Positions 129-45,380 of a DNA stretch of 64,000 bases are shown here, in pieces (the first letter of the stretch is position 1; each line of letters opens with the position of its first letter). Position numbers and translations under genes: made by a program. Origin of the DNA: Candidatus Moraniibacteriota bacterium (GTDB taxonomy: Bacteria; Patescibacteriota; Minisyncoccia; Moranbacterales; GCA-2747515); NCBI GenBank assembly GCA_046116545.1, contig CP175956.1, positions 77,219 through 141,218 on the forward strand, in the 5' to 3' direction. The notes under the pieces are model-generated. The model was not told the origin of the DNA. It searched no databases and worked only from the letters and a program-made list of their open reading frames with translations.

Positions 129-776
129 GTGACTGCAAGAAATTCGAATGGTAATTATACTGGTGTTAGAAAAACTTTTCTTATTGGTATTGAATGGAAA
201 GATAACATCCCATTTATTGATAATAGCCGTAACTTCGTATCATTTGCCACTGATCGTCACATTGCAATTTCTGGGGATGACTTAGATGCTCTCATCGACG
301 GGAAAATTTATACATCCCGCACAGATAACCAAGGTGACTATGTCATAGACGCTGATACTCTATGCAAATATGCTGCTCTCAAAATTGATGCTGATAAAGT
401 AAAATTAGTGGCAAAAGAGATTGCAGAAGAACAATCTCTTGTTGACAAACTCAAGCAGGAGCTGACAGATCAAACTACTGCAGCAAAAGGCAGAGCTTCC
501 GTGGCACAAAATCTTGTTGATAGACTTCAACGAGAAATTCACGCACGTGAGATTGAAGTGGATGAAGTAAATCTCAGTCTTACCACTACCGCTCATGAAA
601 TAGATGACTTACAAAATGATCTCAATAATAGCTTATCTAAAAGAGATACTTGGAGAACAGCTGCTCAAAAGTTGTTAGTAGTTTGCACAGATAATTGGAA
701 AGTTTTCCCCATTCCAAATAAAATTGCTATTGAAATGAAAAACATTAACGATCTAAGCAACGACTTGCCTAAATAA
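129..776 (+). CDS. Hypothetical coiled-coil protein. The N-terminus may lie upstream; the first in-frame start is GTG at 129 after a TAA at 96-98. The region is noticeably GC-richer than the rest of the window.
   Basis: 215-aa ORF. The central part is charged and heptad-like (KEIAEEQSLVDKLKQELTDQ...). I recognise no family motif. The composition differs from neighbouring genes. Confidence 0.35.
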   Translation: MTARNSNGNYTGVRKTFLIGIEWKDNIPFIDNSRNFVSFATDRHIAISGDDLDALIDGKIYTSRTDNQGDYVIDADTLCKYAALKIDADKVKLVAKEIAEEQSLVDKLKQELTDQTTAAKGRASVAQNLVDRLQREIHAREIEVDEVNLSLTTTAHEIDDLQNDLNNSLSKRDTWRTAAQKLLVVCTDNWKVFPIPNKIAIEMKNINDLSNDLPK

Positions 777-910: not shown

Positions 911-2638
911 TTACCTCACAAAACAACCATTTGGAATTTGTATATCCATGTTATTTATCTTTTTTGGACTCATTCTATACAACATCAATGTTCCAAAATT
1001 CTTTTTATCAACAACATTATGAATTTCCAACATTTCATCAGCAATATGCACCTTTGATTTTGTTCGCACTAGTACGTAATATCCTTTTCCATCAACTTGC
1101 TCCGTTTCAAAACTACTTCTTTTTATATAACATTGTGCATTATCAATTCCATTTTCAATATTTGTCAAAAAATATAATGTACGTGCATAACGGTTATCAC
1201 CAACAATTAGAAATTTAGACTCATTCTGCTCTTCACTAATATACCGAGATACTTCACGCAATTGTCCAAGTGTAATATAATCTGCACGTTTCATTATTAA
1301 ATCACGCCATTGTAGAGACGCGATTAATCGCGTCTCTACGTTATTTAAAATTGTAAAATATTGCCATGAACTCACGAGGTTGAAAATAAGCAAACAACTT
1401 ACAATGACAATGCTTACGCCAATCCCAACTCTACCAAATTTCTTTTGTAATACTTGTAATACTGTTCCAAACATAATTAAAAATACCGGAACAATCAAAA
1501 GATAAAATCGTGGAGAAATTTGATATGCCATCAATACCAAAAATATATTTACAATACCAAGCCAGAGTACGATAAGTAACTGCCTTTGATACAAATTAAG
1601 TTCAATCTGACTCTCTTTCCGTTTTTTATAACTCACAATAAATGGATATAAGAATACAATACTAATAAGTATTAAGCTACTCATTGCAACTACATGTACT
1701 GGCAATCGTTCCTTACAATCCTTATCACACAAGAAATATCCTGTTGTCGTTTTTTTTGTGCGAATATTATCTCCACCAGACTGATTTCCGGTTAATACTA
1801 CAAAATTATATGTACTTGTTTCTTGTGCACTTCTAAATATTTTTTCAGCAATGTTATGTTTATCGTCTTTGTTGCCTTTTTCAAAGATGACATTTACCAA
1901 TGACTTTGCATTTGCACCACTAGTTTGTATTTCACTAAATATCACAGGAGCATATAACAAGCAAAAAAGTCCTACTGACATAAGCATAACTCTCCAGTCT
2001 ACTTTCATCTTTGTAAATAGGATGTAAGAAATTACTATCAATGGCAGTGTCAAAAATGCTATAAAATGCAATTGCATCGCTACTGCACTAGCTCCCACCA
2101 TCACTAAGAACCAACTTTTTGAAAAAACCTTATTATCCCATGCTCGTAAAAGTCCGTACATCGACAAAGTCATCCAAAAAGGTAACGCATTAGGATTCCA
2201 AGCAAAACGACCGTATGTAATCAAAAAAAGCGATGTCGCAGCCACAGCAACTAACATTACACTTATTGAACGAGAAAAATACAATCGAGCAAATAAATAA
2301 AATAACGGTAAAAATAAAATAGAAAATAATAAATCTGGCAATGCAACAATGCTCGGACCGACTCCAAAAAAGATAGCTGGAATTGCTTGAAAATAATAAA
2401 AAATTGGACCTAAATATAATTCACTTCCCCGTGCATATGGACCAAGTAATGGAATACTACCCCCATTCAACATATCATATACAACAAATACATCTCTAGC
2501 CTGATCTAACTCAAAGTGTAATAAATCTGCATAGTTATAAACACGCAAAAAAATACCCAGTAGAATAAAAATACCAAGCAAAATATATATCACTTTATTA
2601 GATTTGATTTCTGCTAATAAGTCTTTTATTTTCAACAT
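911..2638 (-). CDS. GT-C fold polytopic membrane glycosyltransferase (ArnT/PMT-like, GT39/GT83-type)
   Basis: 575 aa with more than 10 predicted TM helices. An early extracytoplasmic loop carries an acidic motif (ELDQARDVFVVYD) resembling the DE motif of polyprenol-P-sugar-dependent GT-C enzymes. It sits next to three further GT-C paralogs. Confidence 0.55.
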   Translation of the reverse strand: MLKIKDLLAEIKSNKVIYILLGIFILLGIFLRVYNYADLLHFELDQARDVFVVYDMLNGGSIPLLGPYARGSELYLGPIFYYFQAIPAIFFGVGPSIVALPDLLFSILFLPLFYLFARLYFSRSISVMLVAVAATSLFLITYGRFAWNPNALPFWMTLSMYGLLRAWDNKVFSKSWFLVMVGASAVAMQLHFIAFLTLPLIVISYILFTKMKVDWRVMLMSVGLFCLLYAPVIFSEIQTSGANAKSLVNVIFEKGNKDDKHNIAEKIFRSAQETSTYNFVVLTGNQSGGDNIRTKKTTTGYFLCDKDCKERLPVHVVAMSSLILISIVFLYPFIVSYKKRKESQIELNLYQRQLLIVLWLGIVNIFLVLMAYQISPRFYLLIVPVFLIMFGTVLQVLQKKFGRVGIGVSIVIVSCLLIFNLVSSWQYFTILNNVETRLIASLQWRDLIMKRADYITLGQLREVSRYISEEQNESKFLIVGDNRYARTLYFLTNIENGIDNAQCYIKRSSFETEQVDGKGYYVLVRTKSKVHIADEMLEIHNVVDKKNFGTLMLYRMSPKKINNMDIQIPNGCFVR

Positions 2639-2688: not shown

Positions 2689-4932
2689 ATGCAAAGATTC
2701 ACATTAAAAGAATATATTTCTTCTCTCATAATTTTTCTTAGCACTTGTGGAATTATTATATATAAAGTGCATTTCTTCACATCATTGCGCATTGGCACAT
2801 CTCCACGCATATTATATGCGTTTTTTATAATTGCTCTTATATCTCTAATATTTTTTCTATACAAAAACAAGAACTCAGAATTTATCAAAAATTTCCTGAT
2901 ACTCACACTACCCACTGAATTAATTCTCTTGTTAGTAAATAATTTAACTCATAAACTTCACTGGACGTTTGATGTTCTTAGTGGCCTATGGCTATTGCTT
3001 CTTGGTTTTTTCATCATTCAAAAATATACAAAAAATCACAAGAGCACAGAAAACACTGAGACTACTGCAAAACTATATACACCTGTTATCATTACGATGC
3101 TTTTAATCATATCTGTTATTCATATTTTTTTTGGTGCTTATAATTTGGGTAAAGCAGCTTATATTGACGAACGCCTCTGGACTTATAGCAATGAAAAGCG
3201 TATCGAAAAATACTGGAATAATATTTTAGAACATGATTGGAGAAATACACGTCCTAGCGATAAACCTGGTGTCACTCTAGCAATACTTTCTGGTCCATCA
3301 CTCTTATCAGTAACACCTTCTGACTTCAAAGATGACATCAACGATAAAAATGCTTTTGCTCACATGCTTTTTACAATGCGTTTGCCTATAATTATCTTTA
3401 GCACATTGGCTCTATTCTTTTTTTATCATGTACTTGGAAAACTTTTTAACCCCACAATAGGAATGCTCTCTACTGCGTTCATTGGACTCTCCCCAATACT
3501 GCTTGGCGTTAGTCGCATCATTAATCCAGATGCTTTGACATGGATTTTTATACCCTTAACACTATATGCCTATTTCACATATCAAAAAACACAAAATATT
3601 AATTGGATTTATACAACCGGTATTTTACTAGGACTTGGATTGCTTACAAAATACATTGCAAATCTTATATTTCCATTCTTTTTCATTTTACTTTTCACAC
3701 ATACGCTATTTGGTAAATATACAAAAGATCAACTACGCACCCATCTGCGCAATACACTGTCAGGAATTGGAATAATTACACTTATTGCAATAATGACATT
3801 CTATATACTTTATCCTGGAACTTGGGTGAAACTTGATCGCATATTTATCGGTACACTTTGGAGTCAACCATTTGAACCAATTTGGCAATATTTTGTTATT
3901 TTTGTCGCACTTATTGTTATCGACTTTTTCTTTAACAACTCAACAGTAATCCTATGGATATCACTGCAACTACGCAAATTCAAATCTATTATTATTGCAA
4001 TAATTCCAATTATTTTTTTGATTGTGATTTCATTTACTCTATATCATACATATCTTGCCCCACAACCAATCAACTTTGAACAAATTTTAACATCACCAAA
4101 AATAACAGCTAATGAGACTGATAGCGCTACAACATTAGAGGCCTTTGCTACAAGTTTTTATGCTCTTATATTTGGCATATCTCCAATAGCACTACTAGGT
4201 ATATTATTTACATTAATTTTTATTACTTTAAATAAATGGTCTATACCGAACATTCAACGTTCTACAATATGGAATATTTTATTATTTATTCTTATCTTTT
4301 ATTTTGGATCTATATTTAGTTCTACAATACCCACTGTACGTTATCAAATAATTTTATATCCACTGATACTTACTGTATCTGCATTTGGTTGGTACTATTT
4401 ATCTAAAATACTATTTCCACGTAATAAAACCATCTTCTTTTATGTACTTTTTGCTATTATCATTGCCACCTCCACCTATACATTTCTCACATTCAAACCT
4501 TTTTACTTTAGCTATAACAGTCCCATCCTACCCAATGGACAACTTATAAATCCTAAAGACATGGGTGATGGTAATTATGAAGCAGCACAATTTCTCAATT
4601 CACTTCCAAATGCAAAAAATCTAAATGTTTGGTCTGACAAGAGAGGTGTTTGTACATTTTTCATTGGAGATTGTGTTAGTGTCATCCGTAAATCAGATTT
4701 TATAAAGAATGGACCACATTATGATTATTTTGTAATATCTAAAGGCCGTGAAACTCGCACAGTCAATATGTCTCGTGGTTATTCACAAGGACGAATTGAT
4801 TATCCTGTACGTCTAGATTTACTATATACTGAAAATCCTGAATCTATCTTTGAATTAAATCCTGGAAATATAAGTGCAAATTACATAAAGGTAATACCAA
4901 AAGAAAATGTAAATGTCTGGCGCGGTAATTAA
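2689..4932 (+). CDS. GT-C fold membrane glycosyltransferase paralog with a C-terminal soluble domain
   Basis: 747 aa and multi-TM. It has the motifs YIDERLW (DE motif), DKPGVT, RIINPDAL and GLLTKY. The C-terminal non-TM domain motif LNSLPNAKNLNVWSD...C.FF.GDC is conserved in the next two genes. Confidence 0.5.
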   Translation: MQRFTLKEYISSLIIFLSTCGIIIYKVHFFTSLRIGTSPRILYAFFIIALISLIFFLYKNKNSEFIKNFLILTLPTELILLLVNNLTHKLHWTFDVLSGLWLLLLGFFIIQKYTKNHKSTENTETTAKLYTPVIITMLLIISVIHIFFGAYNLGKAAYIDERLWTYSNEKRIEKYWNNILEHDWRNTRPSDKPGVTLAILSGPSLLSVTPSDFKDDINDKNAFAHMLFTMRLPIIIFSTLALFFFYHVLGKLFNPTIGMLSTAFIGLSPILLGVSRIINPDALTWIFIPLTLYAYFTYQKTQNINWIYTTGILLGLGLLTKYIANLIFPFFFILLFTHTLFGKYTKDQLRTHLRNTLSGIGIITLIAIMTFYILYPGTWVKLDRIFIGTLWSQPFEPIWQYFVIFVALIVIDFFFNNSTVILWISLQLRKFKSIIIAIIPIIFLIVISFTLYHTYLAPQPINFEQILTSPKITANETDSATTLEAFATSFYALIFGISPIALLGILFTLIFITLNKWSIPNIQRSTIWNILLFILIFYFGSIFSSTIPTVRYQIILYPLILTVSAFGWYYLSKILFPRNKTIFFYVLFAIIIATSTYTFLTFKPFYFSYNSPILPNGQLINPKDMGDGNYEAAQFLNSLPNAKNLNVWSDKRGVCTFFIGDCVSVIRKSDFIKNGPHYDYFVISKGRETRTVNMSRGYSQGRIDYPVRLDLLYTENPESIFELNPGNISANYIKVIPKENVNVWRGN

Positions 4933-4985
4933 TATTAATTGTAGAGACGCGATTAATCGCGTCTCTACGTAACCATACTATTAAA

Positions 4986-6818
4986 ATGTCACTAATAAAA
5001 AATAATCTAAAATCAATAGTCTTAATTATCGCTGTTGTTTTTGTATTTGTTGGAAGTGGCTTGTATCATCTAAATCAATTTGAAACAAGTGATGAACACT
5101 TTTGGAGACTAGAACGCATCCCACAATACTGGACTGCTATAACAACACTTGACCCAGCACAAACATATATAAATGATAAACCTGGAGTCAGCGTAGCACT
5201 TGTATCTGGGATGAGTCTACCATTTACATCATTAGAACGATCATCCTATCCAGATGTACAAGAATATACAATGACACTAAATTATGCTCTCCGCCTCCCT
5301 ATCCTTTTATTCAATGGACTTGTAATGTTGCCTTTGCTCTTTTGGTTAATGACACGAGCGTTTGATAGACGTGTTGCATCTATTGGTATTATCTTAATTG
5401 GAGTAAATCCAATTCTTATTGGAATATCTCAAATTATAAATCCTGATGCTCTCCTGTGGAGTTTTAGTGCTAGTGCACTTTTTAGTTTCTTTGCACTACT
5501 GAAAACTAATGAAAAGAAGTTTATTATACTAACTGGAGTCCTTACTGGATTCGCATTACTTTCTAAATATACCGCAAACCTTTTATTTGTTTTTTATATT
5601 ATGATTGCTGGACTATGGATTATTTACACAGACATCTCTAATATAAAAAAATGGCTACGCACATTTCTTTTAAATTATTTGTTTATCTTTCTGATTTCTG
5701 TTAGCATTTTTGCACTATTTTTACCTGCTACAATTTTAGATTTATCACTGTTTTTATATGGCACAATCCTATCTCCACCCATTAAACCAATTATCATTCC
5801 ATTATTTATAAGTATTATATTACTTACTATTGATGCGTATTTTATCAAAGCTCAAGTCACTGCATCTATTACAAATCTACTCAAAAAAATAAAACTTCCA
5901 ATTTTATATATTTCTGTACTACCATTATTACTTATAATTTTATTTTCACTATTAAATGCTTGGACAGACACACAATTTATTACATTGGATAATTTAAAAG
6001 AAGTAGTTGCAGACAAACAAGAATTGAGGTTTCCTATGCTCGAGGGACTTCCTGCACCTATTTATTTTGCTGGAGAAATAGCTATACAATCTTTTAATAT
6101 ATTATTTTCTCTCACTCCAATCGTTCTTATTTTCACTCTCACAACTTTACTACTTGTTTTTTTCAAAAAAATACCAACTAAATATTATGTGCTACTTATT
6201 TTTTGCGCAATTACCCCACTTTTATTTTTTGTAGGCGGTCTTTTATCTGAAACATTTGTCAACATCCGTTACGCTATAATACTGCAACCATTATTTGCAC
6301 TTATCGCAAGTATTGGATTATCGATCATCATTCCACAAAGAAAATATTTTTTCACATTCTCTTTGATATTTATATTTTTCATTCAAAGTTTGTCAGTGTA
6401 TTATGCTGCTCCATATTATTTCAATTACCAAAATATCTTTTTACCTCAAAAATTTATACTCACAGATTCCTGGAGTTATGGGATATTTGAAGCTACTCAA
6501 TACTTAAATTCCCTACCAAATGCCCAAGATCTAACTATCTGGTCAGATCGCAAAGCTGCTTGTTATTATTTTGATGGCAAGTGCATAATGAGACGAAAAT
6601 TAGATGGCAAAAATCAATTACCTGATTATTTCATAGTTACCAGAAGAGGTGTATTGCGACATCATTTCAAATGGCAAGATGCCGAAATAGCTCCCTTCCC
6701 TGTGGAAACTATCTATACTGAATCAGTTCTAAATAATCCTCATTGGCGTTATGATATATTGAATAGACCACAAAATTATATTAAAATAATTAAAACGCAA
6801 GACATACTTAATAAATAA
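4986..6818 (+). CDS. GT-C fold membrane glycosyltransferase paralog
   Basis: 610 aa and multi-TM. It has SDEHFW, NDKPGVSVA, QIINPDAL and the C-terminal motif YLNSLPNAQDLTIWSD. A ~320-bp stretch is almost identical to the next gene. Confidence 0.5.
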   Translation: MSLIKNNLKSIVLIIAVVFVFVGSGLYHLNQFETSDEHFWRLERIPQYWTAITTLDPAQTYINDKPGVSVALVSGMSLPFTSLERSSYPDVQEYTMTLNYALRLPILLFNGLVMLPLLFWLMTRAFDRRVASIGIILIGVNPILIGISQIINPDALLWSFSASALFSFFALLKTNEKKFIILTGVLTGFALLSKYTANLLFVFYIMIAGLWIIYTDISNIKKWLRTFLLNYLFIFLISVSIFALFLPATILDLSLFLYGTILSPPIKPIIIPLFISIILLTIDAYFIKAQVTASITNLLKKIKLPILYISVLPLLLIILFSLLNAWTDTQFITLDNLKEVVADKQELRFPMLEGLPAPIYFAGEIAIQSFNILFSLTPIVLIFTLTTLLLVFFKKIPTKYYVLLIFCAITPLLFFVGGLLSETFVNIRYAIILQPLFALIASIGLSIIIPQRKYFFTFSLIFIFFIQSLSVYYAAPYYFNYQNIFLPQKFILTDSWSYGIFEATQYLNSLPNAQDLTIWSDRKAACYYFDGKCIMRRKLDGKNQLPDYFIVTRRGVLRHHFKWQDAEIAPFPVETIYTESVLNNPHWRYDILNRPQNYIKIIKTQDILNK

Positions 6819-6828
6819 TCAAAATTAT

Positions 6829-8781
6829 ATGAAAAAATTCATGAAAAAATATTTTCCACTATTATTAGCGATGTTAATCTTTGTTGGATTTGGACTTTAT
6901 CACATCAGCAAATTTGAAACAATTGATGAACACTTTTGGAAATATGATCGCATAGAAAAATATTACAACGGTCTAAGTGAACATAATCTCAAGAAAACAC
7001 GTATAAATGACAAACCTGGTGTAACAGTTGCTCTACTTACAGGAATTGGTTTACCATTCTCTCCATCATTATCAGAACATCAAATTGTAACACAAAGACA
7101 ACAATACACCATGACAAAAGATAATGGTAAAGAACGTGTTTTATATAATTTATTCAACACAAATCAAACACAACAGATAAACTACTCTCTCCGACTTCCA
7201 ATTCTTCTATTCAATGGGCTTGTCATGCTACCTTTACTCTTTTGGTTAATGACACGTGCATTTGATAGACGTGTTGCATCTATTGGTATTATCTTAATTG
7301 GAGTTAATCCGATTCTTATTGGAATATCTCAAATTATAAATCCTGATGCTCTTTTATGGAGTTTTAGTGCTGGTGCTCTTTTTAGTTTCTTTGCACTACT
7401 CAAAACAAATGAAAAAAAGTTCATTGTTCTGACTGGAGTTCTTACAGGATTTGCACTTTTATCTAAATATACTGCAAACCTTTTATTTGTTTTTTATTTG
7501 ATTTCTTATATTTTTTATACAGTACTCAACCAAAATAATGCAGAGTCTTTCAAAAATATGCTTTTGTCATTTGCAAAAAAGATGGTCGGTATCTCTATTG
7601 TTGCATGGATAACCCTTTCAGTATTCATGCCAGCTGTCATTATAACTCCAAAACATTTTCTTTATGCAACATTATACTCTCCTGTTTTTGAGCCCATAGT
7701 AAATATTTTTGCATCATTATTACATATTAAAAATTATATTATCTTTAGCAATGGCACTTATAATACATTGCCATTGGCACTTTTTTCTATGTTAATCTTT
7801 GGTTTTTTATTTATAGCGCTTCCACCATTTATTGCATTTTTATTACAAAAAAAACCAATTATAATTCTTATCATTGGTAAAATATTTATTATAATTCTTG
7901 TGCTTATTTTCGTTTTATCATTTATCAATGCCTGGTTTAATACGCCTTTCTTCTCACTTGAAAATCTCAAAGAAGTTTCTCGCTCTGAAGGGAGTGTAAC
8001 ATTTCCACAATTAGCTAATGAACCCACCCCACTATTTTGGACTAAGGCATTACTAATACAAGCACAAAATTTTATATTCTCCATCCATTCTATTGTAATA
8101 TTTTTCATATTCACAGTATTTATATTTACATTTCGCACAAAACAAATTAAATATGAATGGTTTATATACTTTGCAGCATTCATGCCGTTTGTCTTTCTTG
8201 GAGGAGCTTTAATGTCCAATGTATTTGTGAATGTCCGATATAGTCTTATGCTATATCCAATGTTCATGGCACTTGGTGCAATTGGGATTATAACTCTTTG
8301 CGACGTAATTAATTGGAAATTTAAACGCCCCCTCTTTTTAGGATTATTACTCATCACAAGTATTTATTCGCTATGGATTATCAAGCCTTTCTACTTCAAT
8401 TATACAAACTTCCTATTACCTCATAAATATGTTGTTACAGATGCTTGGGGATATGGATTTTATGAAACAGCACAATATCTAAATCAACTAGATAATTCTA
8501 AAGATATTATCGTTTGGGTTGATCGTGAAGGTCTTTGTCAGTTTTTTGAAGGCAAATGTATCACATCACGTGAAGTATATCTTGATCACACTACAGTAGA
8601 CTATCTAGTTGTCACGCGACGTGGATCTCTCATACGAGAACCAATCCCCATTACCAAAAATGAAAACTCTATGACTTTCAAAAAATACTATACGCCCCAA
8701 TATTTCAATAACCCAATTTGGGAATTAAATATTGATAATCGTCCTGGAAACTTCATAAAGATTATAAAAATTGAAAAATAA
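6829..8781 (+). CDS. GT-C fold membrane glycosyltransferase paralog
   Basis: 650 aa and multi-TM. It has IDEHFW, NDKPGVTVA, QIINPDAL and the C-terminal motif YLNQLDNSKDIIVWVD...C.FFEGKC. Confidence 0.5.
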   Translation: MKKFMKKYFPLLLAMLIFVGFGLYHISKFETIDEHFWKYDRIEKYYNGLSEHNLKKTRINDKPGVTVALLTGIGLPFSPSLSEHQIVTQRQQYTMTKDNGKERVLYNLFNTNQTQQINYSLRLPILLFNGLVMLPLLFWLMTRAFDRRVASIGIILIGVNPILIGISQIINPDALLWSFSAGALFSFFALLKTNEKKFIVLTGVLTGFALLSKYTANLLFVFYLISYIFYTVLNQNNAESFKNMLLSFAKKMVGISIVAWITLSVFMPAVIITPKHFLYATLYSPVFEPIVNIFASLLHIKNYIIFSNGTYNTLPLALFSMLIFGFLFIALPPFIAFLLQKKPIIILIIGKIFIIILVLIFVLSFINAWFNTPFFSLENLKEVSRSEGSVTFPQLANEPTPLFWTKALLIQAQNFIFSIHSIVIFFIFTVFIFTFRTKQIKYEWFIYFAAFMPFVFLGGALMSNVFVNVRYSLMLYPMFMALGAIGIITLCDVINWKFKRPLFLGLLLITSIYSLWIIKPFYFNYTNFLLPHKYVVTDAWGYGFYETAQYLNQLDNSKDIIVWVDREGLCQFFEGKCITSREVYLDHTTVDYLVVTRRGSLIREPIPITKNENSMTFKKYYTPQYFNNPIWELNIDNRPGNFIKIIKIEK

Positions 8782-9143: not shown

Positions 9144-9273
9144 AATGACCTCCCAGTCTCAGACTTCAATATATAAAGAACTTGTTTTTGACTAAATATA
9201 TTATCATAAATTACATCATTCGTCAACTTAAAATATTGTAAGCTCTCACACATCTAAACAAAATACACAACCA

Positions 9274-9490
9274 GTCTTTGCGAACAGAAGTGATGCTTAC
9301 TGTGTTATGTGAAGCAATCTCAAAAGTTTATAAATAATCTAACCGAGATTGCTTCGTCGTACCTCCTCCACCCAGGTGGTCCATCTACTACGCTTTAAAT
9401 TCAGAATAGTCGCTATACAGCTCCTTTCTTCATTTATCTTGAACAGAGTTCAATTTATTATGCCCTTGTGGTACACCTTGACGCAATGAC
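9274..9490. repeat. Palindromic element family A, long variant. It has unit I (gtctttgcgaaca...gtgaagcaatctc) and unit II (gagattgcttcgtcgtacctcctccacccaggtggtcc...), and extends to cttgaacagagttcaatt...caccttgacgcaatgac.
   Basis: Two-stem imperfect palindrome. gaagcaatctc pairs with gagattgcttc, and gtctttgcga pairs with tcgcaaagac. The sequence recurs at 12 or more further sites. Confidence 0.8.
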
Positions 9491-12112: not shown

Positions 12113-12141
12113 TTTTTATTATTATGTCAGTTGTTTTACAT

Positions 12142-12229
12142 GAGATTGCTTCGTCGTACCTCCTCGCAAAGACGATATCTAGTCATTGCGAACAGAACCA
12201 AAATCATCTGTGACCTGTGAAGCAATCTC
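12142..12229. repeat. Palindromic element family A (unit II then unit I, opposite order to 9274)
   Basis: gagattgcttcgtcgtacctcctcgcaaagac ... gtcattgcgaacagaacc...gtgaagcaatctc. Confidence 0.8.
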
Positions 12230-12236
12230 GATCATT

Positions 12237-12539
12237 TTATCCATTTTCTATCATTTTACCATATAAATCAACCCACTCAATATTACTATTTTCAATCAAT
12301 GCAATTTTATTTTTACGCGAACCACTTTTTATTTGTTTTTCTCTAGAAATTGCAGACTCAATTGATGGACATACTTCATAATGTACTAACTTATGCAAAT
12401 TATATCTTTGAGTAAATCCCCTTACAATATTATTTTTGTGTTCCCAAATTCGTTTTTGCAAATTAGTAGTAACTCCAACGTACAAAGTACCATCTTTTTT
12501 ATTCGTTAAAATATACACGCACGAAATTTTTTCATTCAT
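12237..12539 (-). CDS. GIY-YIG domain nuclease family protein (UPF0213-like)
   Basis: Motifs VYILTNKKDGTLYVGVTTNLQKRIWEHK and RPW-like. It is flanked on both sides by family-A repeats. Confidence 0.75.
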   Translation of the reverse strand: MNEKISCVYILTNKKDGTLYVGVTTNLQKRIWEHKNNIVRGFTQRYNLHKLVHYEVCPSIESAISREKQIKSGSRKNKIALIENSNIEWVDLYGKMIENG

Positions 12540-12575: not shown

Positions 12576-12680
12576 GTCTTTGCGAGCAACTGTGACTTTT
12601 ATTATGTCTAGCGAAGCAATCTCCACCAGGTTTATTAATATACTCACTAAGATTGCTTCGTCGTACCTCCTCGCAATGAC
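12576..12680. repeat. Palindromic element family A. Its unit II overlaps the 3' end and supplies the stop codon of the GT4 gene.
   Basis: gtctttgcgagcaactgtgac...gcgaagcaatctc / ctaagattgcttcgtcgtacctcctcgcaatgac. On the minus strand, unit II reads ...V S L R G G T T K Q S stop. Confidence 0.8.
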
Positions 12681-13831
12681 ACATTATTATATAGCTCAAC
12701 ATACTCATTTGCCACATTTTCCCAGTTCATTGTCTCCGCTATCAATCTACTTGCATGTCCCATACCATCACATATTTCTGGATTTTCTATTAATATTTTT
12801 AATTTTTCTACGATTGACTGTACATCATTCATTTTTATGAGATAACCATTTTCTCCATTTCTCACAAGCTCCTCCGCTCCACCTGTTGGTGTCATGAGCA
12901 CTGGAAGACCTGATGCCAATGCTTCTAATAAATTATTACTCATTCCTTCATTTAACGATGGCATCACAAATACATCCGCACTATTATAGATACCTGCAGA
13001 TTCTTCCTTTGTATACAATCCACTAAATGTTACTCGTCCATCTAATCTATATTTTTTCACCTGAGCTTTTAACTCTTCCATTGCATTTCCCTCTCCCCCA
13101 GCTATTTGCATTTTGATATGAGGATACATATCAAATAATTCCACAAAAGCATCTATCGCATAATTAAATCCCTTTCGCCTTGATATTCTAGAAGCTAACA
13201 AAATTTTAAATTCTTTTTTTCTATCTTCAACTGTCCTGCTGCTACTACTATAAAAATCTGTATCCACTCCATTAAATATTTGTACAAATTCTTGTTCTGG
13301 CATAGTACTACTAGCAAGCTCTGTAAGACCTTTACTATTTGTTACAACATAATGTGCATCTTTCCATACTTTGTGAATTGTTGGTGTAATGATTTTATAT
13401 AATTTTTTAAATCTTTCACTGTAACCTGGCACATCAGCACCTCGCAGAGATACAATATATGGAATACCATATTTCTTTTTTAATCTTCTTGATATCACAC
13501 CACTAGGCACAGCAAAAAAACTATGCGTCAAATCATAATCATTTCTAGCAATTAATTTTTTGGCAAATTGATATGCCCTAAACGTGTACTTCAATAATTC
13601 TCCTTTTGTTTGATAATTTAAATTATTTGCACTTTTGCCTATTGGAAGTCTATGTATTATTATATTTTCCCCAACTCTCTCTTGCACGTATTCATCTATA
13701 ATTGAAGATGTAACAAGATCAACAAAAACATCATCTCGACGAGAATACTCATCCAAGATGTATTTTGTAGCATTTGCAGCACCACCTCCAAGTGGAGGAT
13801 ATTCATAATTAAAAAATAATACTCTTTTCAT
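12647..13831 (-). CDS. GT4-family (GT-B fold) glycosyltransferase. Its C-terminal 10 aa and stop codon are encoded by a family-A repeat.
   Basis: N-terminal motif FFNYEYPPLGGGAANA, and a C-terminal domain with an E-x7-E-like segment (FVMPSLNEGMSNNLLEALASGLPVL). It ends ...SLRGGTTKQS. Confidence 0.8.
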   Translation of the reverse strand: MKRVLFFNYEYPPLGGGAANATKYILDEYSRRDDVFVDLVTSSIIDEYVQERVGENIIIHRLPIGKSANNLNYQTKGELLKYTFRAYQFAKKLIARNDYDLTHSFFAVPSGVISRRLKKKYGIPYIVSLRGADVPGYSERFKKLYKIITPTIHKVWKDAHYVVTNSKGLTELASSTMPEQEFVQIFNGVDTDFYSSSSRTVEDRKKEFKILLASRISRRKGFNYAIDAFVELFDMYPHIKMQIAGGEGNAMEELKAQVKKYRLDGRVTFSGLYTKEESAGIYNSADVFVMPSLNEGMSNNLLEALASGLPVLMTPTGGAEELVRNGENGYLIKMNDVQSIVEKLKILIENPEICDGMGHASRLIAETMNWENVANEYVELYNNVSLRGGTTKQS

Positions 13832-15211: not shown

Positions 15212-15377
15212 TTTCTACTTTCTCCTTTTTTAAATTGAATAGTTACACTTTTAATAAATGCTAACTGTATAATTAAAGAACACATCTCAAAATAAAGATG
15301 TGTCAAAAGTATAACAAAATAGGGAAACTCGTCAATGAAAAATAATCATATATAACTCCGTTCCTTTCTGTGTTTAT

Positions 15378-15543
15378 GTCATTGCGAACAGAGCCCACAT
15401 CATTTGTAACATGTGAAGCAATCTCATTACAATATCTATGTCTTTGCGAACAGAGCCCATGTTCATTATGACATGTGAAGCAATCTCATTGGGTTTATTA
15501 GTTCACTTACTGAGATTGCTTCGTCGTACCTCCTCGCAAAGAC
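15378..15543. repeat. Palindromic element family A. Two tandem unit-I copies are followed by unit II.
   Basis: gtcattgcgaacagagcccacatcatttgtaacatgtgaagcaatctc, then gtctttgcgaacagagcccatgttcattatgacatgtgaagcaatctc, then gagattgcttcgtcgtacctcctcgcaaagac. Confidence 0.8.
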
Positions 15544-15590
15544 GATAGCCTGTGGATAAACTTGAACAGTTATAGAATTATATCCAACCA

Positions 15591-15632
15591 AAACCACCCC
15601 TCAGTCCCCTCCTTAAAAAGGAGGGGAGGTAA
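15591..15632. repeat. Hairpin element family B, part 1 (accacccctcagtcccctccttaaaaaggaggggagg)
   Basis: Near-identical copies lie at 41471..41510 and 45381..45420. A variant lies at 19851..19880. Confidence 0.7.
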
Positions 15633-15635
15633 AAA

Positions 15636-15672
15636 CTAAACTAAACTAAACTAAACTAAACTAAACTAAACA
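15636..15672. repeat. Pentanucleotide microsatellite (ctaaa), about 7 copies
   Basis: Direct tandem ctaaactaaactaaa..., read from the sequence. Confidence 0.85.
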
Positions 15673-15750
15673 GAATAAAACAGAACTAAGCTAAACATAC
15701 ATCATACGCTCCTACAGACTTGTCATTCCAGAAAATATTATTTGTATCCT

Positions 15751-15776
15751 GTAGGGACAGTGCCTTGTGCCTGTCC
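15751..15776. repeat. Family C arm, single copy
   Basis: gtagggacagtgccttgtgcctgtcc, identical to the 9572 arm. Confidence 0.7.
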
Positions 15777-15850: not shown

Positions 15851-15905
15851 GCCTCTCCCCTTTTTTAAAGGGGGAGATGTCCTAAGGACAGAGGGGGTTC
15901 CACGC
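15851..15905. repeat. Hairpin element family B, part 2 (ctctcccctttttt aaagggggagatgtcctaaggacagagggggtt)
   Basis: Copies lie at 19931..19980 and 41373..41420. Confidence 0.7.
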
Positions 15906-16929: not shown

Positions 16930-17043
16930 TCTAGCTTTTTTAATTTCTTAAATTCTTAACTAAATACTAACATACCAAATACACAGATTCAACTCTAAGT
17001 TGTATAAGTGCTCCCAAATTTCAGTCTTTGCGAGCAACTGTGC

Positions 17044-17186
17044 CATTTCATACGTCCTGCGAAGCAATCTCGTCAAAATATTTATGTCATTGCGAACAGA
17101 AACCACATCATTTGTAACATGTGAAGCAATCTCCGTAGGTTTATTAATGCACCCACTAAGATTGCTTCGTCGTACCTCCTCGCAAA
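17044..17186. repeat. Palindromic element family A. Two unit-I variants are followed by unit II.
   Basis: gtctttgcgagcaactgtgccatttcatacgtcctgcgaagcaatctc ... gtcattgcgaacagaaaccacatcatttgtaacatgtgaagcaatctc ... ctaagattgcttcgtcgtacctcctcgcaaaaac. Confidence 0.8.
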
Positions 17187-17238
17187 AACAAAATACTTTA
17201 TTGCCTCTCCTTGTAAAGACGTTGTTTTTTAAATGTTT

Positions 17239-18333: not shown

Positions 18334-19842
18334 TTGATATACTGTTTATATATTCACATTGAAATAAATACTAAAATGTTACATAAAAAAAATATTACAA
18401 TTGCAAATTCAACAATATTCTTAACTATCCTGTGCTTATTATTTTTTGGCATGACTAAATTTTCTTTTGCTGCTGAGTGGCGCTATGAGGGGGTTGCCTA
18501 TTATGTACCAACCTCATCAAGTAATAACCTTCCTATATATCGATTTTATTCTCCGAAAAATAAATCTCATTTCTTTACAAAGTCAAAATCAGAAAAAGAT
18601 GCTATTATCAAAAAATATCCTACAACAGAGTGGAGATATGAAGGAGTTGCCTATTATGTGCCAAAGTCCTCAACAGGAAACCAGGCTGTTTATCGATTTT
18701 ATTCTCCTAGCAAAAAAACACATTTCTTTACAAAATCAAAATCAGAAAAAGATGCTATTATCAAAAAATATCCCACAACAGAGTGGCGATATGAAGGAGT
18801 CGCATATTATGTGCCAATAACTTCTACTAACAATAAACCTGTATATCGATTTTACAATACTATAAACAAGGCACATTTTTTTACAGCCTCAGAAAGTGAA
18901 AAGATTAGGTTAACTGCTAGTATTTATGGACCGTATATTTCTATTGGACTTCATGAATATTCACGTAGCACACTAAAAGACTCTGCATTCAAAATTGACT
19001 CAAAAAAAGATTATCTCATCAAAGACAAAAATGGTACAACAATTGCAAAAATTAAGGCTGGTGTACAAACAAAAGTTAAATATGATTCTGATGGAAATTT
19101 AAAAATATATAATTCCATATCAGAAAAAAAAGTTAATAAAGAGGTTAGATTTGAAGCAGCTGATGGAAACAATAGTGGTATGATATTTGATATACACAAA
19201 CCAGAATCTGATTTTGATGAATACCGTGGCAAAACAAAACTACGTTATAGTGATACAAGCAAAAATATTTGGGTTATCAATGAATTACCATTGGAATATT
19301 ATATTTGGGGTATGGGTGAAATCACTGGAACAGGTCCAATGGAATATAATAAAATGATGACCACAGCATATCGTACATATGGTTATTGGAAAATCCTCTA
19401 TTCCACCAAGTATGCTACTGAAGGATTTAAAGTAAATGCAACGCCTGGTAATCAAATTTATTATGGTTATGAATGGGAAAAAAGGTATCCTCGTATTAGA
19501 GAAGGAGCTGAATCAACACGTGGGAAAATTGCAAAACATGGTGATGATGTGGCATTAACTCCTTACTCAAGCTGGACTGATGGCAAGACACGTAGTTTTG
19601 AAGAACATTGGGGATCAACACTATATCCATGGTGTCAGTCTGTATCAGACCCTTATGGTGATTATAATGGTGACTATTGGGACAATTCATATAAAAGTAC
19701 ATCCGACCTTGTAGCAAGTGGCAATCATATGGTAGGTATCAGTGCACATGGAGCACTAACACTAGCAAATGATAAAAATTGGAATTGGGACAGAATTATG
19801 AAATACTATTTAGATGGAATTAATATTGTTTCAATTTATTAA
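18334..19842 (+). CDS. Secreted SpoIID/LytB-domain protein with three N-terminal 42-aa tandem repeats
   Basis: Signal peptide, then three copies of EWRYEGVAYYVP...PVYRFYSP.NK.HFFT.S.SEK. The C-terminal domain has SpoIID-like motifs INELPLEYYIWGMGEI...AYRTYGYW and YPWCQSVSDP. Confidence 0.65.
   Translation: MIYCLYIHIEINTKMLHKKNITIANSTIFLTILCLLFFGMTKFSFAAEWRYEGVAYYVPTSSSNNLPIYRFYSPKNKSHFFTKSKSEKDAIIKKYPTTEWRYEGVAYYVPKSSTGNQAVYRFYSPSKKTHFFTKSKSEKDAIIKKYPTTEWRYEGVAYYVPITSTNNKPVYRFYNTINKAHFFTASESEKIRLTASIYGPYISIGLHEYSRSTLKDSAFKIDSKKDYLIKDKNGTTIAKIKAGVQTKVKYDSDGNLKIYNSISEKKVNKEVRFEAADGNNSGMIFDIHKPESDFDEYRGKTKLRYSDTSKNIWVINELPLEYYIWGMGEITGTGPMEYNKMMTTAYRTYGYWKILYSTKYATEGFKVNATPGNQIYYGYEWEKRYPRIREGAESTRGKIAKHGDDVALTPYSSWTDGKTRSFEEHWGSTLYPWCQSVSDPYGDYNGDYWDNSYKSTSDLVASGNHMVGISAHGALTLANDKNWNWDRIMKYYLDGINIVSIY
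18475..18860 (+). repeat. Three 126-bp (42-aa) tandem coding repeats
   Basis: Periodicity is visible in the DNA and in the protein. The alternate-frame ORF 18467..18820 is an artefact of this periodicity. Confidence 0.8.
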
Positions 19843-19850
19843 TAACCACC

Positions 19851-19980
19851 ACTCAATCACCTCCTTTAAAAGGAGGTGAGATAAAAACTAAACTAAACAG
19901 AATTAAAGTTAAGTTAAATTAATCATACTATCCTCTCCCCTTTTTAAGGGGGAGATGTCCGAAGGACAGAGGGGGTTTTG
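19851..19980. repeat. Hairpin element family B (part 1 variant + ctaaa x2 + part 2)
   Basis: tcacctcctttaaaaggaggtga ... ctctcccctttttaagggggagatgtccgaaggacagagggggtt. Confidence 0.7.
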
Positions 19981-20604: not shown

Positions 20605-22467
20605 ATGAGAAACATCAAAAATATATATCTAATAATACTTGCATTATTTTTAATAGCATTTCCCACAGTAATTCATGCACAATCAAAATTGCCATCAATC
20701 CCCATACAATCAATCGCAGCTGAAAAAAACTATGTTGAAGGTGAAGTAATTGTAAAATATAAAATAAATACAAAAAAACAACAATTACTAAAAACATCTA
20801 CAGAAAAAAATGAATCACCAAGACTACTGCAATCTCTACAGGAAACACAATCCATGCATGATCTAAAAATAAAAAATACATTCAAAAATTTAAATATCAC
20901 AACATTACAATCAGATATACAATCAACCCAAGATTTAATAACTAAACTAGAACAAGATCCTGAAGTGGAATATGCGGAACCTAACTACAGAAAATATCCT
21001 ACATCAATACCAAATGATACTTATTTCAAAAGTACACAATGGGCACTATACAATACAGGACAGGAACTTTGTACACCTGACTGCACTACAGGAACAATCG
21101 ATGATGATATTGACGCAACAAATGCTTGGGATATAGAGATTAGTGCTGCCCAAAAAATAACCGTTGCAGTAATAGACAGTGGCTTAAATTATAATCACGA
21201 AGATTTATTACAAAATTTATGGAATGGTGCTAGTTGTGTAAATGAAAATGGAACAACTATACATGGTGGTTGTCCATATCATGGATGGGATTACGCCGAT
21301 AATGACAATAATCCTGCTGATACTACTGGAAGTGCGCAAGGACATGGAACAAGCGTTTCAAGTATATTTGGTGCAACAACAAATAATTCAAAAGGACTTG
21401 CAGGCATCAGTCTATATGGCAATGTAAAGGTTATGGCACTTCGATTTGATTTGGATACAATCTCTGAAATAAAAGCTATTGAATTTGCAAAAAATAATGG
21501 TGTCAAAATTATAAATGCAAGTTTTGCAGGAGATGCCTATTCACAATCAGAAAAAGATGCTATTGATGCATTTCCTGGAATATTTATAACAGCATCTGGC
21601 AACGGTGGCATTGATGGCTTACGTGATAACAATGACGTTACACCGCAATATCCATGTAATTATTCATCAAGTAATATAATATGTGTAGGTGCATCTGATC
21701 AAAATGATAATCTTGCTAGTTTTTCAAATTATGGACAAACAAGCGTTGATTTAGTGGCTCCTGGAGTAAATATATTAATTGCTTGTGATAATGTCTACTG
21801 TACTGGTGATGGTACTTCATTTTCTACACCCTACGTAACAGGTGTTGCTGCAATCTTGTCTAGCCACAATACAAAATTGTCTACATCACAAGTGAAAAGT
21901 TTAATACTTGATAATGTCGATAATGTTGGACTATCAACACAGATAAAAACGGGAGGTCGTCTTAATATGTATAAATCTCTTTACGATTTGAAAACTAGTT
22001 ACGGATATTCATACTCCACAAAACCAGTTTACAGATTCTATTCACCAAGCAATAAAGCACATTTCTTTACTGTATCCGAAACTGAAAAGAATCATATTGT
22101 TGCAACTTACCCAACCACTGAATGGCGATATGAAAATATTGCTTATTATGTACCAACAACATCTACTGGCAATAAGCCTGTGTATAGATTCTATTCACCA
22201 CGCAACAAAGCTCATTTTTTCACTGTATCAGAAACTGAAAAGAATCATATTGTTGCAACTTACCCAACCACTGAATGGCGATATGAAAATATTGCTTATT
22301 ATGTACCAACAACATCTACTGGCAATAAGCCTGTATATCGATTTTATTCTCCACGTAACAAAGCACATTTCTTTACTGTATCAGAAAGTGAAAAGAATCA
22401 TATTGTTGCAACTTACCCAACCACTGAATGGCGATATGAAAATATTGCTTATTATGTACCAAAATAA
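20605..22467 (+). CDS. Secreted subtilisin-like serine protease (peptidase S8) with three C-terminal 42-aa tandem repeats
   Basis: Signal peptide. Catalytic triad motifs VAVIDSG (Asp), HGTSVSS (His) and GTSFSTPYVTGVAA (Ser). The C-terminus has three near-identical repeats PVYRFYSPRNKAHFFTVSETEKNHIVATYPTTEWRYENIAYYVP. Confidence 0.85.
   Translation: MRNIKNIYLIILALFLIAFPTVIHAQSKLPSIPIQSIAAEKNYVEGEVIVKYKINTKKQQLLKTSTEKNESPRLLQSLQETQSMHDLKIKNTFKNLNITTLQSDIQSTQDLITKLEQDPEVEYAEPNYRKYPTSIPNDTYFKSTQWALYNTGQELCTPDCTTGTIDDDIDATNAWDIEISAAQKITVAVIDSGLNYNHEDLLQNLWNGASCVNENGTTIHGGCPYHGWDYADNDNNPADTTGSAQGHGTSVSSIFGATTNNSKGLAGISLYGNVKVMALRFDLDTISEIKAIEFAKNNGVKIINASFAGDAYSQSEKDAIDAFPGIFITASGNGGIDGLRDNNDVTPQYPCNYSSSNIICVGASDQNDNLASFSNYGQTSVDLVAPGVNILIACDNVYCTGDGTSFSTPYVTGVAAILSSHNTKLSTSQVKSLILDNVDNVGLSTQIKTGGRLNMYKSLYDLKTSYGYSYSTKPVYRFYSPSNKAHFFTVSETEKNHIVATYPTTEWRYENIAYYVPTTSTGNKPVYRFYSPRNKAHFFTVSETEKNHIVATYPTTEWRYENIAYYVPTTSTGNKPVYRFYSPRNKAHFFTVSESEKNHIVATYPTTEWRYENIAYYVPK
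22018..22464 (+). repeat. Three near-identical 126-bp tandem coding repeats
   Basis: The copies differ at only a few nucleotides. The alternate-frame ORF 22097..22525 is an artefact. Confidence 0.85.
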
Positions 22468-22540
22468 AATAATACCTACCAACTCATCGCCATTGCTAGG
22501 AAGTACAACGAAGCAATCTCAATAATAAACTCCAGCATTC

Positions 22541-34902: not shown

Positions 34903-36318
34903 TTATTTTTTGCTCCATTCGTGTTCAATGCGCATTATTCCTACTCCAGACCCTTTTTGTTTTTTAATTTTGATAATATGATTATTTAGTTCTTTTGTTG
35001 AATTAGAATCCACAATATCATTTTGTCCACTTTTATTTTCAAATAAAACAGCTTTTATATATATTTCCCCCGTGTTAAACATCGTGTTTTTAAAATAAAT
35101 TATAAATACATTTCTATCTTTTTGCCAACTGCAATTAAAATTATCTACATCTGTATTATTACCACACAAAAATACATTTGTTTCATTGTCAAAAATTTGC
35201 ACTGCTTGCACAAGATTATGCTTAATTTTTGAAACTTGCACTTCAATCTCTACAAAAAAATCATCACCCCATGTAATTTCAGTTAATTTATTTCTATCTA
35301 TATCAAAAACCTGTATATCTGTAATTATATTTTCATTTTTCACTTGTCTTTTCATACCACCTCTTAGTGATTTCTCATGTTCCTGCTCTTCTTTTTCAAT
35401 CCGTTCCTTTTTTTCTAATTCTTCACGTTGGTCTTCAGACATATTTTTAATAATATATTCATCACATACATCATTCACATCACCAGAACCAAGTAATTCA
35501 CCCTTATGTAATAATAAAGCTCTATCACAATATTCTCGCACTGTTGCCATACTGTGGGTTACTAATATTACAGTTTTTCCCCTCTCTTTATATCCTCTGA
35601 AAATATCAAGACACTTCTCTTGAAATCTACTATCCCCCACAGCCAATACCTCATCCATAATAAGTATTTCACGATCTGCATGAATTGACACACTGAAAGC
35701 GAGACGAGCCTTCATGCCACTTGAATAATTTTTTAATTGTTCGTCTATAAATTTTTCTAATTCTGCAAATGCGACTATTTCATCAAACTTTTCATCAATT
35801 TGTTTTTTTGTTAAACCTAGTACTGTCGCATTGAGATATATATTGTCTCGTCCTGATAATTCTGGATTAAAACCTATTCCTAGCTCAAGGAATGGTGATA
35901 TCATACCATTTACCTCAATTGATCCAGATGTTGGTTGATAAACACCTGCTAAAATCTTTAACAATGTAGACTTACCTGCCCCATTATGTCCTATAATTCC
36001 CAAAAATTCTCCTTTTTTTACTTCTACTGAAATATCTTTGAGAGCGTAGAATTCTTCATATGTATTTTTTTTCAAAGAATTCACAAAAGCACTTTTCATT
36101 GAATCAATTTTTTTGTGAGGAATTTTAAAGATTTTTGAGACGTTTTTTACTTTTACTGCTATTTCTTTATCTGGCTGAGATTGCTTCGTCGTACCTTCTC
36201 CACCCAGGTGGTCCCTCTCTTGAACAGAGTTCAATTCACCTTGACGCAAAGATGCATCTTTTTTTACTTTGATGCTTTTATCTTTTTTATTTGATTGTTG
36301 GTTATTTTTTTTATTCAT
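34903..36318 (-). CDS. wzt: ABC transporter ATP-binding protein of the Wzt/TagH/KpsT polysaccharide-export type, with a C-terminal substrate-binding (Wzt_C-like) domain. It carries an in-frame 84-nt family-A insertion near the N-terminus.
   Basis: Walker A GHNGAGKST, signature YSSGMKARLAF and Walker B ILIMDEVLAVGD. An extra ~180-aa beta-rich C-terminal domain is present. The N-terminal leader contains SLRQGELNSVQERDHLGGEGTTKQSQP, encoded by repeat A. Confidence 0.8.
   Translation of the reverse strand: MNKKNNQQSNKKDKSIKVKKDASLRQGELNSVQERDHLGGEGTTKQSQPDKEIAVKVKNVSKIFKIPHKKIDSMKSAFVNSLKKNTYEEFYALKDISVEVKKGEFLGIIGHNGAGKSTLLKILAGVYQPTSGSIEVNGMISPFLELGIGFNPELSGRDNIYLNATVLGLTKKQIDEKFDEIVAFAELEKFIDEQLKNYSSGMKARLAFSVSIHADREILIMDEVLAVGDSRFQEKCLDIFRGYKERGKTVILVTHSMATVREYCDRALLLHKGELLGSGDVNDVCDEYIIKNMSEDQREELEKKERIEKEEQEHEKSLRGGMKRQVKNENIITDIQVFDIDRNKLTEITWGDDFFVEIEVQVSKIKHNLVQAVQIFDNETNVFLCGNNTDVDNFNCSWQKDRNVFIIYFKNTMFNTGEIYIKAVLFENKSGQNDIVDSNSTKELNNHIIKIKKQKGSGVGIMRIEHEWSKK
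36177..36251. repeat. Palindromic element family A, long unit II, inserted in-frame in wzt
   Basis: gagattgcttcgtcgtaccttctccacccaggtggtccctctcttgaacagagttcaattcaccttgacgcaaagat. This is the reverse complement of the intergenic copy at 24850..24926. Confidence 0.85.
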
Positions 36319-37156: not shown

Positions 37157-37226
37157 CTATCCCAAGGCTTTTTCATTATATCACATGGTAGCATTGTTGC
37201 AATAATACAACAATGCCTGCCAAAAT

Positions 37227-37640
37227 TTACTTTGGCACATAGTATGATACTCCTTCATACCTCCATTCTGTTGTAGGATATGTTGCAATAATATGATCCT
37301 TTTCACTTTCTGAAACTGTGAAAAAATGTGCCTTATTACGTGATGAATAAAATCTATATACTGGTTTATTACCTGCTGCAACTGTTGGCACATAGTATGA
37401 TATACCTTCATATCTCCATTCTGTTGTAGGATATGTTGCAATAATATGATCCTTTTCACTTTCTGAAACTGTGAAAAAATGTGCCTTATTACGTGATGAA
37501 TAAAATCTATATACTGGTTTATTACCTGATGCAGATGTTGGCACATAGTATGATATTCCTTCATATCTCCATTCTGTTGTAGGATATGTTGCAATTATAT
37601 GATTCTTTTCACTTTCTGAAACTGTGAAAAAATGGGCCTT
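37227..37640 (-). repeat. Three near-identical 126-bp tandem coding repeats
   Basis: Visible DNA periodicity. The alternate-frame ORF 37181..37594 is an artefact. Confidence 0.85.
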
Positions 37641-41370: not shown

Positions 41371-41512
41371 ACCTTCTCCCCTTTTTAAAAGGGAAGATGT
41401 CCGATAGGACAGAGAGGGGTTTGTTATAGTAGCTTTTTAATCTTTGTATTATTTAGTTCTTATTTTTACCAAAACCACCCCTCAGTCCCCTCCTTAAAAA
41501 GAAGGGGAGGCT
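41371..41512. repeat. Hairpin element family B (part 2 then part 1)
   Basis: ccttctcccctttttaaaagggaagatgtccgataggacagagaggggtt ... accacccctcagtcccctccttaaaaagaaggggagg. Confidence 0.7.
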
Positions 41513-45321: not shown

Positions 45322-45380
45322 GCTACACAAATGATACTGATTTTTCATTTAAAATTTGTTTTATACTTACGTTATATACA

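Follow-up and report, generated by a model that had tools for sequence, protein, structure and literature searches.

A 28-bp palindrome in a glycosyltransferase gene of a Moraniibacteriota bacterium as a probable double-foot REP

How does one and the same perfect palindrome come to stand in frame inside a glycosyltransferase gene and again in an intergenic spacer a few kilobases away? The question is raised by a stretch of 64,000 nucleotides from a Candidatus Moraniibacteriota bacterium (contig CP175956.1, positions 77,219 to 141,218 of the forward strand; called the window in the following), in which the 28-bp sequence GTAGAGACGCGATTAATCGCGTCTCTAC is found at 1312-1339, within the minus-strand open reading frame (ORF) 911..2638, and a second time at 4941-4968. 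A first-pass annotation of the sequence had reported both copies at exactly these positions and had left the nature of the element unexplained. The palindrome is real and it is quite probably a repetitive palindromic element (REP) of the double-foot type, namely a member of the GTAGAGACG-foot family of TnpA_REP subclass 2.4, which is Group 4 of the REP-associated tyrosine transposases (RAYT) of Bertels, because its sequence and its geometry match the double-foot REPs published for this subclass.

Two copies of one palindrome

Copy 1 is located in the coding sequence (CDS) of a GT-C (PMT_2-type) glycosyltransferase of 575 amino acids (911..2638, minus strand). The homologues of this protein are PMT_2/GT39-type (GT-C) glycosyltransferases with PF13231 and their source names are mostly Moranbacteria or Parcubacteria. 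The palindrome encodes residues V434-L442 and provides the first base of codon 443, and it is read as VETRLIASL within ...NNVETRLIASLQWRD.... Copy 2 is identical and lies in a spacer of 53 nt between two co-directional GT-C genes, starting 9 nt past the stop codon of the upstream gene (2689..4932, plus strand, 747 amino acids, with an orthologue on the related contig L141 annotated as PF13231) and ending 17 nt before the ATG of the downstream paralogue (4986..6818, plus strand, 610 amino acids). The identity shared between both copies comprises 33 nt (ATT, the 28-mer and GT) and both have a G+C content of 50% compared to about 31% for the window. No third copy is present in the window even if up to three mismatches are permitted, and none of 100 dinucleotide-preserving shuffles of the window contained a match, in agreement with the earlier statement that the two copies are not a product of chance.

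Each copy folds into a hairpin with a 12-bp stem and a 4-nt loop, for which the calculated energy is -19.8 kcal/mol for the RNA (z -7.1) and -13.1 kcal/mol for the DNA. In both window copies the ends carry feet that are paired with each other, GTAG at the 5' and CTAC at the 3' end, so that the element reads the same on both strands, and its two stop-free frames encode the peptides VETRLIASL and RDAINRVST. As an AseI site in the core is framed by a pair of inverted BsmBI sites (GAGACG...CGTCTC), an arrangement that resembles the drop-out cassettes of Golden Gate cloning, contamination by a synthetic stuffer or an assembly chimera might be suspected. However, VETRLIASL is included in a 100%-identical protein fragment from an independent Joint Genome Institute (JGI) contig of the same organism (P0003), so the palindrome was not created by the assembly. 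It is also present in finished genomes, among them Calothrix PCC 7716 and Nostoc NIES strains, it stands in frame in many genes and occurs in nested and decayed copies, and other double-foot families do not show the BsmBI/AseI arrangement, all of which leaves an artificial origin with practically no probability.

The frame being intact, and the two closest orthologues having a peptide encoded by a palindrome at this very site, one could also take VETRLIASL for a functional peptide conserved in the GT-C protein, the DNA of which is palindromic by chance. Yet from about 120 homologues only three, which are the window organism and its two closest relatives, have a palindrome at this site, and in orthologues with 61% identity or less a plain linker of 9 amino acids without palindrome is found at the place where the window protein has 10. 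The site is the most variable segment of an alignment of 18 sequences (A1) and is directly followed by a near-invariant WRD. In the AlphaFold2 model (predicted local distance difference test, pLDDT, 84; predicted template modelling score, pTM, 0.88) residues 433-456 form a low-confidence coil that links the C-terminal alpha/beta domain to the last membrane helix (376-432), with a pLDDT below 50 at residues 439-441. Moreover, the same DNA is found in the intergenic spacer and in unrelated genes, where both open frames are used, and a functional peptide can thus be set aside almost with certainty. With the motif being absent from 117 of the 120 homologues, the alignment of orthologues favours a dispersed repeat over the conserved protein motif, as the first-pass annotation had claimed, and the model suggests that the palindrome occupies a tolerated position in a variable surface linker.

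The palindrome family and its RAYT genes

Using the 22-nt core GAGACGCGATTAATCGCGTCTC as query for an exact search we found at least 120 loci in the GTDB species genomes and 20 virus-like contigs in IMG/VR. According to their record titles the matches listed come from about eight phylum-level groups and include many Nostocales, other Cyanobacteria, Bacteroidota, Methylococcales/Crenothrix, Myxococcota, Spirochaetia, Abditibacteriaceae and FCPU426 as well as Patescibacteria of the candidate phyla radiation (CPR), the latter with Moranbacteria, Parcubacteria, Peribacteria, Beckwithbacteria, Torokbacteria and Altimarinota. GenBank phages gave no match to the palindrome, and among plasmids it was found in those of Calothrix and Kovacikia only. 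GTA and TAC directly border the core in most of the 152 copies from other loci, while the flanks are unrelated among the loci and conservation ends abruptly with the 28 bp, save for a T bias at position -1. Of 119 copies, 10 (about 8%) cap a longer hairpin that is specific to their locus. Copies that are partly duplicated in tandem or nested within themselves are frequent (L002, L022, L053, L066, L067, L098 and L102), and in the Nostocales loci L007, L017, L026, L050 and L077 heptamer tandem repeats surround the 28-mer. On the virus-like contigs L124 (6-33, 791-818 and 911-938), L139 (12947-13656) and L137 (6092-6119) it was also observed as part of a longer repeated unit with the conserved flanks cgttaatcgccgcacc...GTAG...CTACaaccaaacgggcagacaat and a spacing of 120-440 nt.

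This distribution bears on the idea of a locally evolved regulatory hairpin, which could act as terminator, attenuator or mRNA stabiliser and whose copy inside the CDS would be there by coincidence or as a pause for translation or transcription. The hairpin is very stable, and both copy 2 and a related element at 867-895 lie just 3' of stop codons, which is a typical position for REPs (PMC3733652). An identical 28-mer in about eight phylum-level groups with unrelated flanks, however, argues against evolution in place. On the sense strand no T-run follows the hairpin for the genes of copy 1 or copy 2, T-rich or terminator-like tails being present only in antisense, and no Rfam family matched anywhere in the window, which makes a local regulatory origin highly unlikely. 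An intrinsic terminator, in which a T-run comes after the GC-rich hairpin on the sense strand of the upstream gene, was rejected, as copy 2 is followed by GTAACCATAC on this strand; the element at 867-895 likewise has no T-run behind it in sense direction. REPs stabilise the 3' ends of mRNA (PMC3733652), and copy 2 may have a secondary role at the RNA level by forming a hairpin in the mRNA, as may the element at 867-895, and such hairpins would then influence the transcripts concerned.

The loci examined hold a whole superfamily of perfect palindromes with GTAG...CTAC ends, for which only forms of 28 or 29 nt were found in our census. On viral contigs the pattern GTAGAGACG-N10-CGTCTCTAC occurs with 47 different centres, and at least three outer Watson-Crick pairs are kept in 34 of them (chance about 1.6%). 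The conserved features are the foot and the hairpin shape and not the apex. In the window itself three double-foot REPs are present, the two identical 28-mers and one element of a different subfamily, GTAGTGGTAGAACACTGTTCTACCACTAC (29 bp), at 867-895. The 3' ends of two convergent genes, ORF 129..776 and the GT-C gene, enclose this element, which is 15 nt beyond the stop codon of the latter and whose inner part forms a mini GTAG...CTAC palindrome of its own. A decayed orthologous copy of it is present on the orthologous contig L143, and near the equivalent region L141 and L143 both have a sister element GTAGTGACAG(G/A)TTT(C/A)AAACCTGTCACTAC; a clean filled/empty pair was not found for this region. 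Two more places in the window are of similar appearance: 15744-15773 (GTAGGGACAGTGCCTTGTGCCTGTCCGAG) resembles a decayed double-foot palindrome with left foot and arm intact and the right foot lost, and 37188-37219 (GTAGCATTGTTGCAATAATACAACAATGCCTG) is a possible single-foot GTAG hairpin, which is AT-rich and has an 8-bp stem.

Elements of this kind are known from the work of Quentin et al. (2018; BMC Genomics 19:475, PMC6006769). According to this paper, TnpA_REP of subclass 2.4, corresponding to Bertels' Group 4, carry the motifs NH[IFV]H, WQ and YIxNNP and are scattered patchily over Cyanobacteria, Bacteroidetes and 'various phyla'. 'Double foot' REPs are described there with GT[AG]G at the 5' and C[TC]AC at the 3' end, REPs were found in frame inside tnpA_REP between the HuH motif and the Y, and the GTAG foot is read by TnpA_REP. 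The 28-mer has the same feet, the same length of 28 nt, the 12-bp stem and the 4-nt loop in common with the double-foot REPs of subclass 2.4. Table S1 of the same paper includes the 28-nt entries GTAGAGACGCACGGCCGTGCGTCTCTAC, GTAGAGACGTTGCATGCAACGTCTCTAC and GTAGAGACGCGATTTATCGCGTCT with the identical GTAGAGACG foot, the exact variant with the GATTAATC centre not being listed there; the sections of the paper that were consulted make no mention of CPR/Patescibacteria or of virus-like contigs.

In order to find recurrent neighbours of the palindrome we clustered the ORFs across 140 loci. One recurrent family was obtained from eight Bacteroidota loci, and in each of them (8/8) the palindrome is located inside the gene. 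The eight proteins show the motifs PNH[IV]H, WQ and YIxNNP and match the NCBIfam model REP_Tyr_transpos (NF047646) with an E value of 2e-14 (53.7 and 52.9 bits), whereas the match to Pfam Y1_Tnp is weak (20.1 compared to a cut-off of 23). As these scores are below the curated cut-offs, the proteins are related to RAYTs but are no equivalogs of the NF047646 seed clade, and by their motifs they fit subclass 2.4. In L029, a Moraniibacteriota locus, the 28-mer is found 19 nt upstream of the start of a RAYT at the end of the contig, leaving an N-terminal fragment (E 3e-12), and a protein search with a padded 42-aa query for a full-length CPR RAYT gave no match. A search with one of the RAYT-like proteins, from which the palindrome peptide had been removed, resulted in more than 5,900 homologues, several of them annotated as RayT. 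Among the best 120 of these, RDAINRVST or VETRLIASL is present exactly in 49 and as a close variant in 31 more (80 in total), and all peptides that could be located are placed in the loop that follows the HuH motif (PNHxH). Sister palindromes with the same foot are present in other members of the same set, encoding for example VETPKLGVST and VETQNFASL. The RAYT clade and the GTAGAGACG foot family thus co-occur far beyond chance.

In the model for such copies that we favour, an HUH-Y1 transposase of subclass 2.4 would recognise the hairpin and the GTAG foot on single-stranded DNA and would cut and rejoin the DNA at the recognised site, by which copies would spread over the genome. They would persist wherever they are harmless, as may be the case in the variable GT-C linker, where the element is read as VETRLIASL, and in the short spacer, and a RAYT would have placed both window copies. 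A tiny element that moves by itself, for example via an RNA intermediate as reportedly proposed by Elhai et al. in 2008 for the small dispersed repeats (SDR) of Nostoc, and for which RAYT genes are only favoured targets, would offer another explanation. It would suit the 28-mers in heptamer tandems of Nostocales and the common nested or partial self-duplications, and also the lack of a RAYT both in the window and on the 122 virus-like loci (1.05 Mb) that carry such palindromes. We consider this route unlikely, as the co-occurrence of RAYT clade and foot family speaks against it, as does the GTAG foot, being the very feature read by TnpA_REP (PMC6006769), and neither a reverse transcriptase nor another candidate was recurrent near the copies when the ORFs of the 140 loci were clustered.

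Several observations weigh against a double-foot REP that is spread by RAYTs. Using tblastn and a hidden Markov model (HMM) built from 120 homologues, no RAYT-like gene was found in the 64-kb window or on the orthologous contigs L141-L143, and the RAYT-like proteins detected elsewhere score 53.7 bits where the curated cut-off of NF047646 is 80 bits. Three double-foot REPs in 64 kb are far sparser than in REP-rich genomes, and the phylum attribution of some matches depends on the binning of metagenome-assembled genomes (MAG), errors in which could inflate the list of phyla. A 28-nt unit (28 = 27 + 1) is no multiple of three and for this reason never frame-neutral, and a simple insertion leaves the intact frame unexplained. 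Finally, we know of no system in which RAYT-driven spread of REPs has been demonstrated in vivo.

How does the 28-mer compare to other short palindromic repeats? The REP/REPIN-RAYT systems of E. coli and Pseudomonas described by Bertels and Rainey (2011; PMC3116915) consist of imperfect palindromes replicating as inverted doublets (REPINs), which are extragenic and found mostly in related species. Common to these classical REPs and the 28-mer are the short GC-rich hairpin, the GTAG foot, the link to a single-copy HUH-Y1 gene and the presumed non-autonomous mobility, whereas the 28-mer is a single perfect palindrome, is often coding and has the same sequence across phyla. Different from the extragenic location of classical REPs, copy 1 lies in a CDS, and among the 152 copies at other loci 47 are contained in open frames that run for at least 150 amino acids without a stop. 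Di Nocera et al. (2013; BMC Genomics 14:522, PMC3733652) found GTAG REPs preferentially just downstream of genes and occasionally in frame within ORFs, often those of replication and repair genes. The 28-mer resembles them in the GTAG tag, the location after genes and the in-frame copies, including those in RecG, UvrC and RNase H, but their tag is unpaired and present at one end while that of the 28-mer is paired and present on both ends, and neither the 28-mer nor its peptides are contained in the supplements of that paper.

Two other identities were tried and rejected: a MITE, or miniature inverted-repeat transposable element, would have 70-300 bp, terminal inverted repeats, a non-palindromic core and a target-site duplication, whereas the unit found here has 28 bp, is wholly palindromic and shows no duplication, and for a CRISPR repeat the copies, 3.6 kb apart, form no array. 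The Rickettsia palindromic elements (RPE) are about 100-150 bp long, are known only from Rickettsia and have no known associated transposase. They are palindromic repeats lying in frame in functional protein genes (as cited in PMC3733652). With its 28 bp and an unrelated sequence, the palindrome of the window shares only this in-frame habit with them. The SDRs of Nostoc (SDR1-8), attributed to work by Elhai in 2008, are said to be hairpins of 21-27 nt with compensatory changes, nesting and embedding in heptamers. In PMC5861425 they are reported as confined to Nostocaceae. Nesting and heptamer embedding are seen for the 28-mer in the Nostocales loci, but the 28-mer itself is found far outside Nostocaceae. 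A text search of the literature for the DNA of the 28-mer and for its peptides found no paper.

Coding copies and the reading frame

The first-pass annotation had described copy 1 as an in-frame coding insertion. What stands is that a dispersed palindrome is tolerated in frame; a simple insertion of nine codons does not agree with a linker that is only one amino acid longer than its palindrome-free counterparts. As 10 amino acids in the window are opposed to 9, the linker sequence looks more like a replacement or remodelling than like nine added codons. Its history also appears to be more complex than a single simple insertion, since the L143 orthologue (71% identical) has a linker of 16 amino acids, in which another perfect 28-mer, GTAGAGACGCATTGCAATGCGTCTCTAC (VETHCNASL), stands at this place and is read in the same frame, and L141 has a decayed copy of GTAGAGACGCATTGCAATGCGTCTCTAC at the GT-C linker.

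In CPR genomes, coding copies were found in the housekeeping genes for RecG, MnmA, UvrC, TsaD and RNase H. The RecG gene of Moranbacteria UBA4824 (L012, 6071-6098) contains the 28-mer read as RDAINRVST, and each residue of this peptide has a counterpart in EEAMERLRFF, a conserved helix of RecG from T. maritima. The segment is 2-3 amino acids shorter here than in REP-free RecG, so this copy, as far as the alignment tells, looks like a replacement and not like an insertion. Compared to homologues in the PDB the net change in length is inconsistent, with -2 to -3 amino acids for RecG, +7 for MnmA, +7 for RNase H and about +14-17 for TsaD, and some copies look like loop additions and others like replacements. 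The intact frame may be the result of selection on rare frame-restoring events or, alternatively, of an overwriting mechanism. A model in which 24 nt are gained at a GTAC, giving GTA[24]C, would suit only some of the copies: removal of 24 nt from L143 leaves a plausible linker of 8 amino acids but only 2 amino acids in the window, and the nested copy in L067 does not fit. An empty-site search of metagenome_contigs with a degenerate pattern of the GT-C linker gave no match, and a protein-guided scan for an empty site at this linker found only a relative with 36% identity.

From the RecG peptide aligned with a conserved helix, the 10 instead of 9 amino acids in the GT-C linker and the different 28-mer in the 71% orthologue a further idea can be derived, which we regard as doubtful though worth stating: REPs of this family may enter genes by writing over about as many nucleotides as they bring, may be swapped on the spot for sisters with the same foot and may ride in the RAYT gene. 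The palindrome is indeed carried inside the RAYT gene itself.

Other repeats of the window and the place of the palindrome

Besides the double-foot REPs the window contains several other repeats. The repeats of 'family A' have the form GTC(A/T)TTGCGA-variable-GAAGCAATCTC and occur in both orientations at 9269-9391, 12141-12250, 12576-12695, 15373-15558, 17019-17204, 36169-36218, 42120-42187 and 46061-46110. A small GIY-YIG-like ORF (12237..12539, minus strand) has copies of this family on either side, and one copy supplies the C-terminal tail ...SLRGGTTKQS of ORF 12647..13831. Two GC-rich intergenic repeats were observed, AACCACCCCTCAGTCCCCTCCTTAAAAAGGAGGGGAGG at 15589-15630, 19841-19882, 41470-41511 and 45379-45420, and CTCCCCTTTTTTAAAGGGGGAGATGTCCTAAGGACAGAGGGGGTT at 15855-15899, 19933-19977 and 41376-41420, and a (CTAAA)n pentamer tandem follows right after one AACCACCCCTCAGTCCCCTCCTTAAAAAGGAGGGGAGG copy at 15632-15670. 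Tandem repeats of 153 nt (51 codons) are located at 18389-18994, 22034-22486 and 37232-37690, with up to 96% identity in the last of these, and are probably repeated protein domains. The adjacent GT-C paralogues 4986..6818 and 6829..8781 share a block of 300 nt with 88% identity (5278-5577 and 7178-7477), and L141 and L143 have one GT-C gene fewer at this pair, which together suggests a recent tandem duplication of the GT-C gene in the lineage of the window. A strongly negative GC skew (-0.16 to -0.32) is seen throughout the 4-kb bins, and the whole 64 kb are therefore located on one replichore strand.

As a class, double-foot REPs have already been described; what is new is that one occurs in a CPR host and in this gene, that the sequence is exactly conserved so widely, and that there are hints of turnover in place. 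CPR genomes are tiny and are usually thought to be poor in mobile DNA. The palindrome extends the double-foot REPs and RAYT subclass 2.4 to CPR (Moranbacteria-like) genomes, and it accounts for the peptides VETRLIASL and RDAINRVST that recur in real as well as hypothetical proteins of different phyla. Only the fact that the 28-mer is exactly conserved in distant phyla and the keeping of the frame might lead to something new. If overwriting, exchange and carriage in the RAYT gene were true, they would make up a compact and self-contained unit, which could seed the 28-mer in about eight phylum-level groups including the CPR, and the same unit would also have copies on phage-like contigs.

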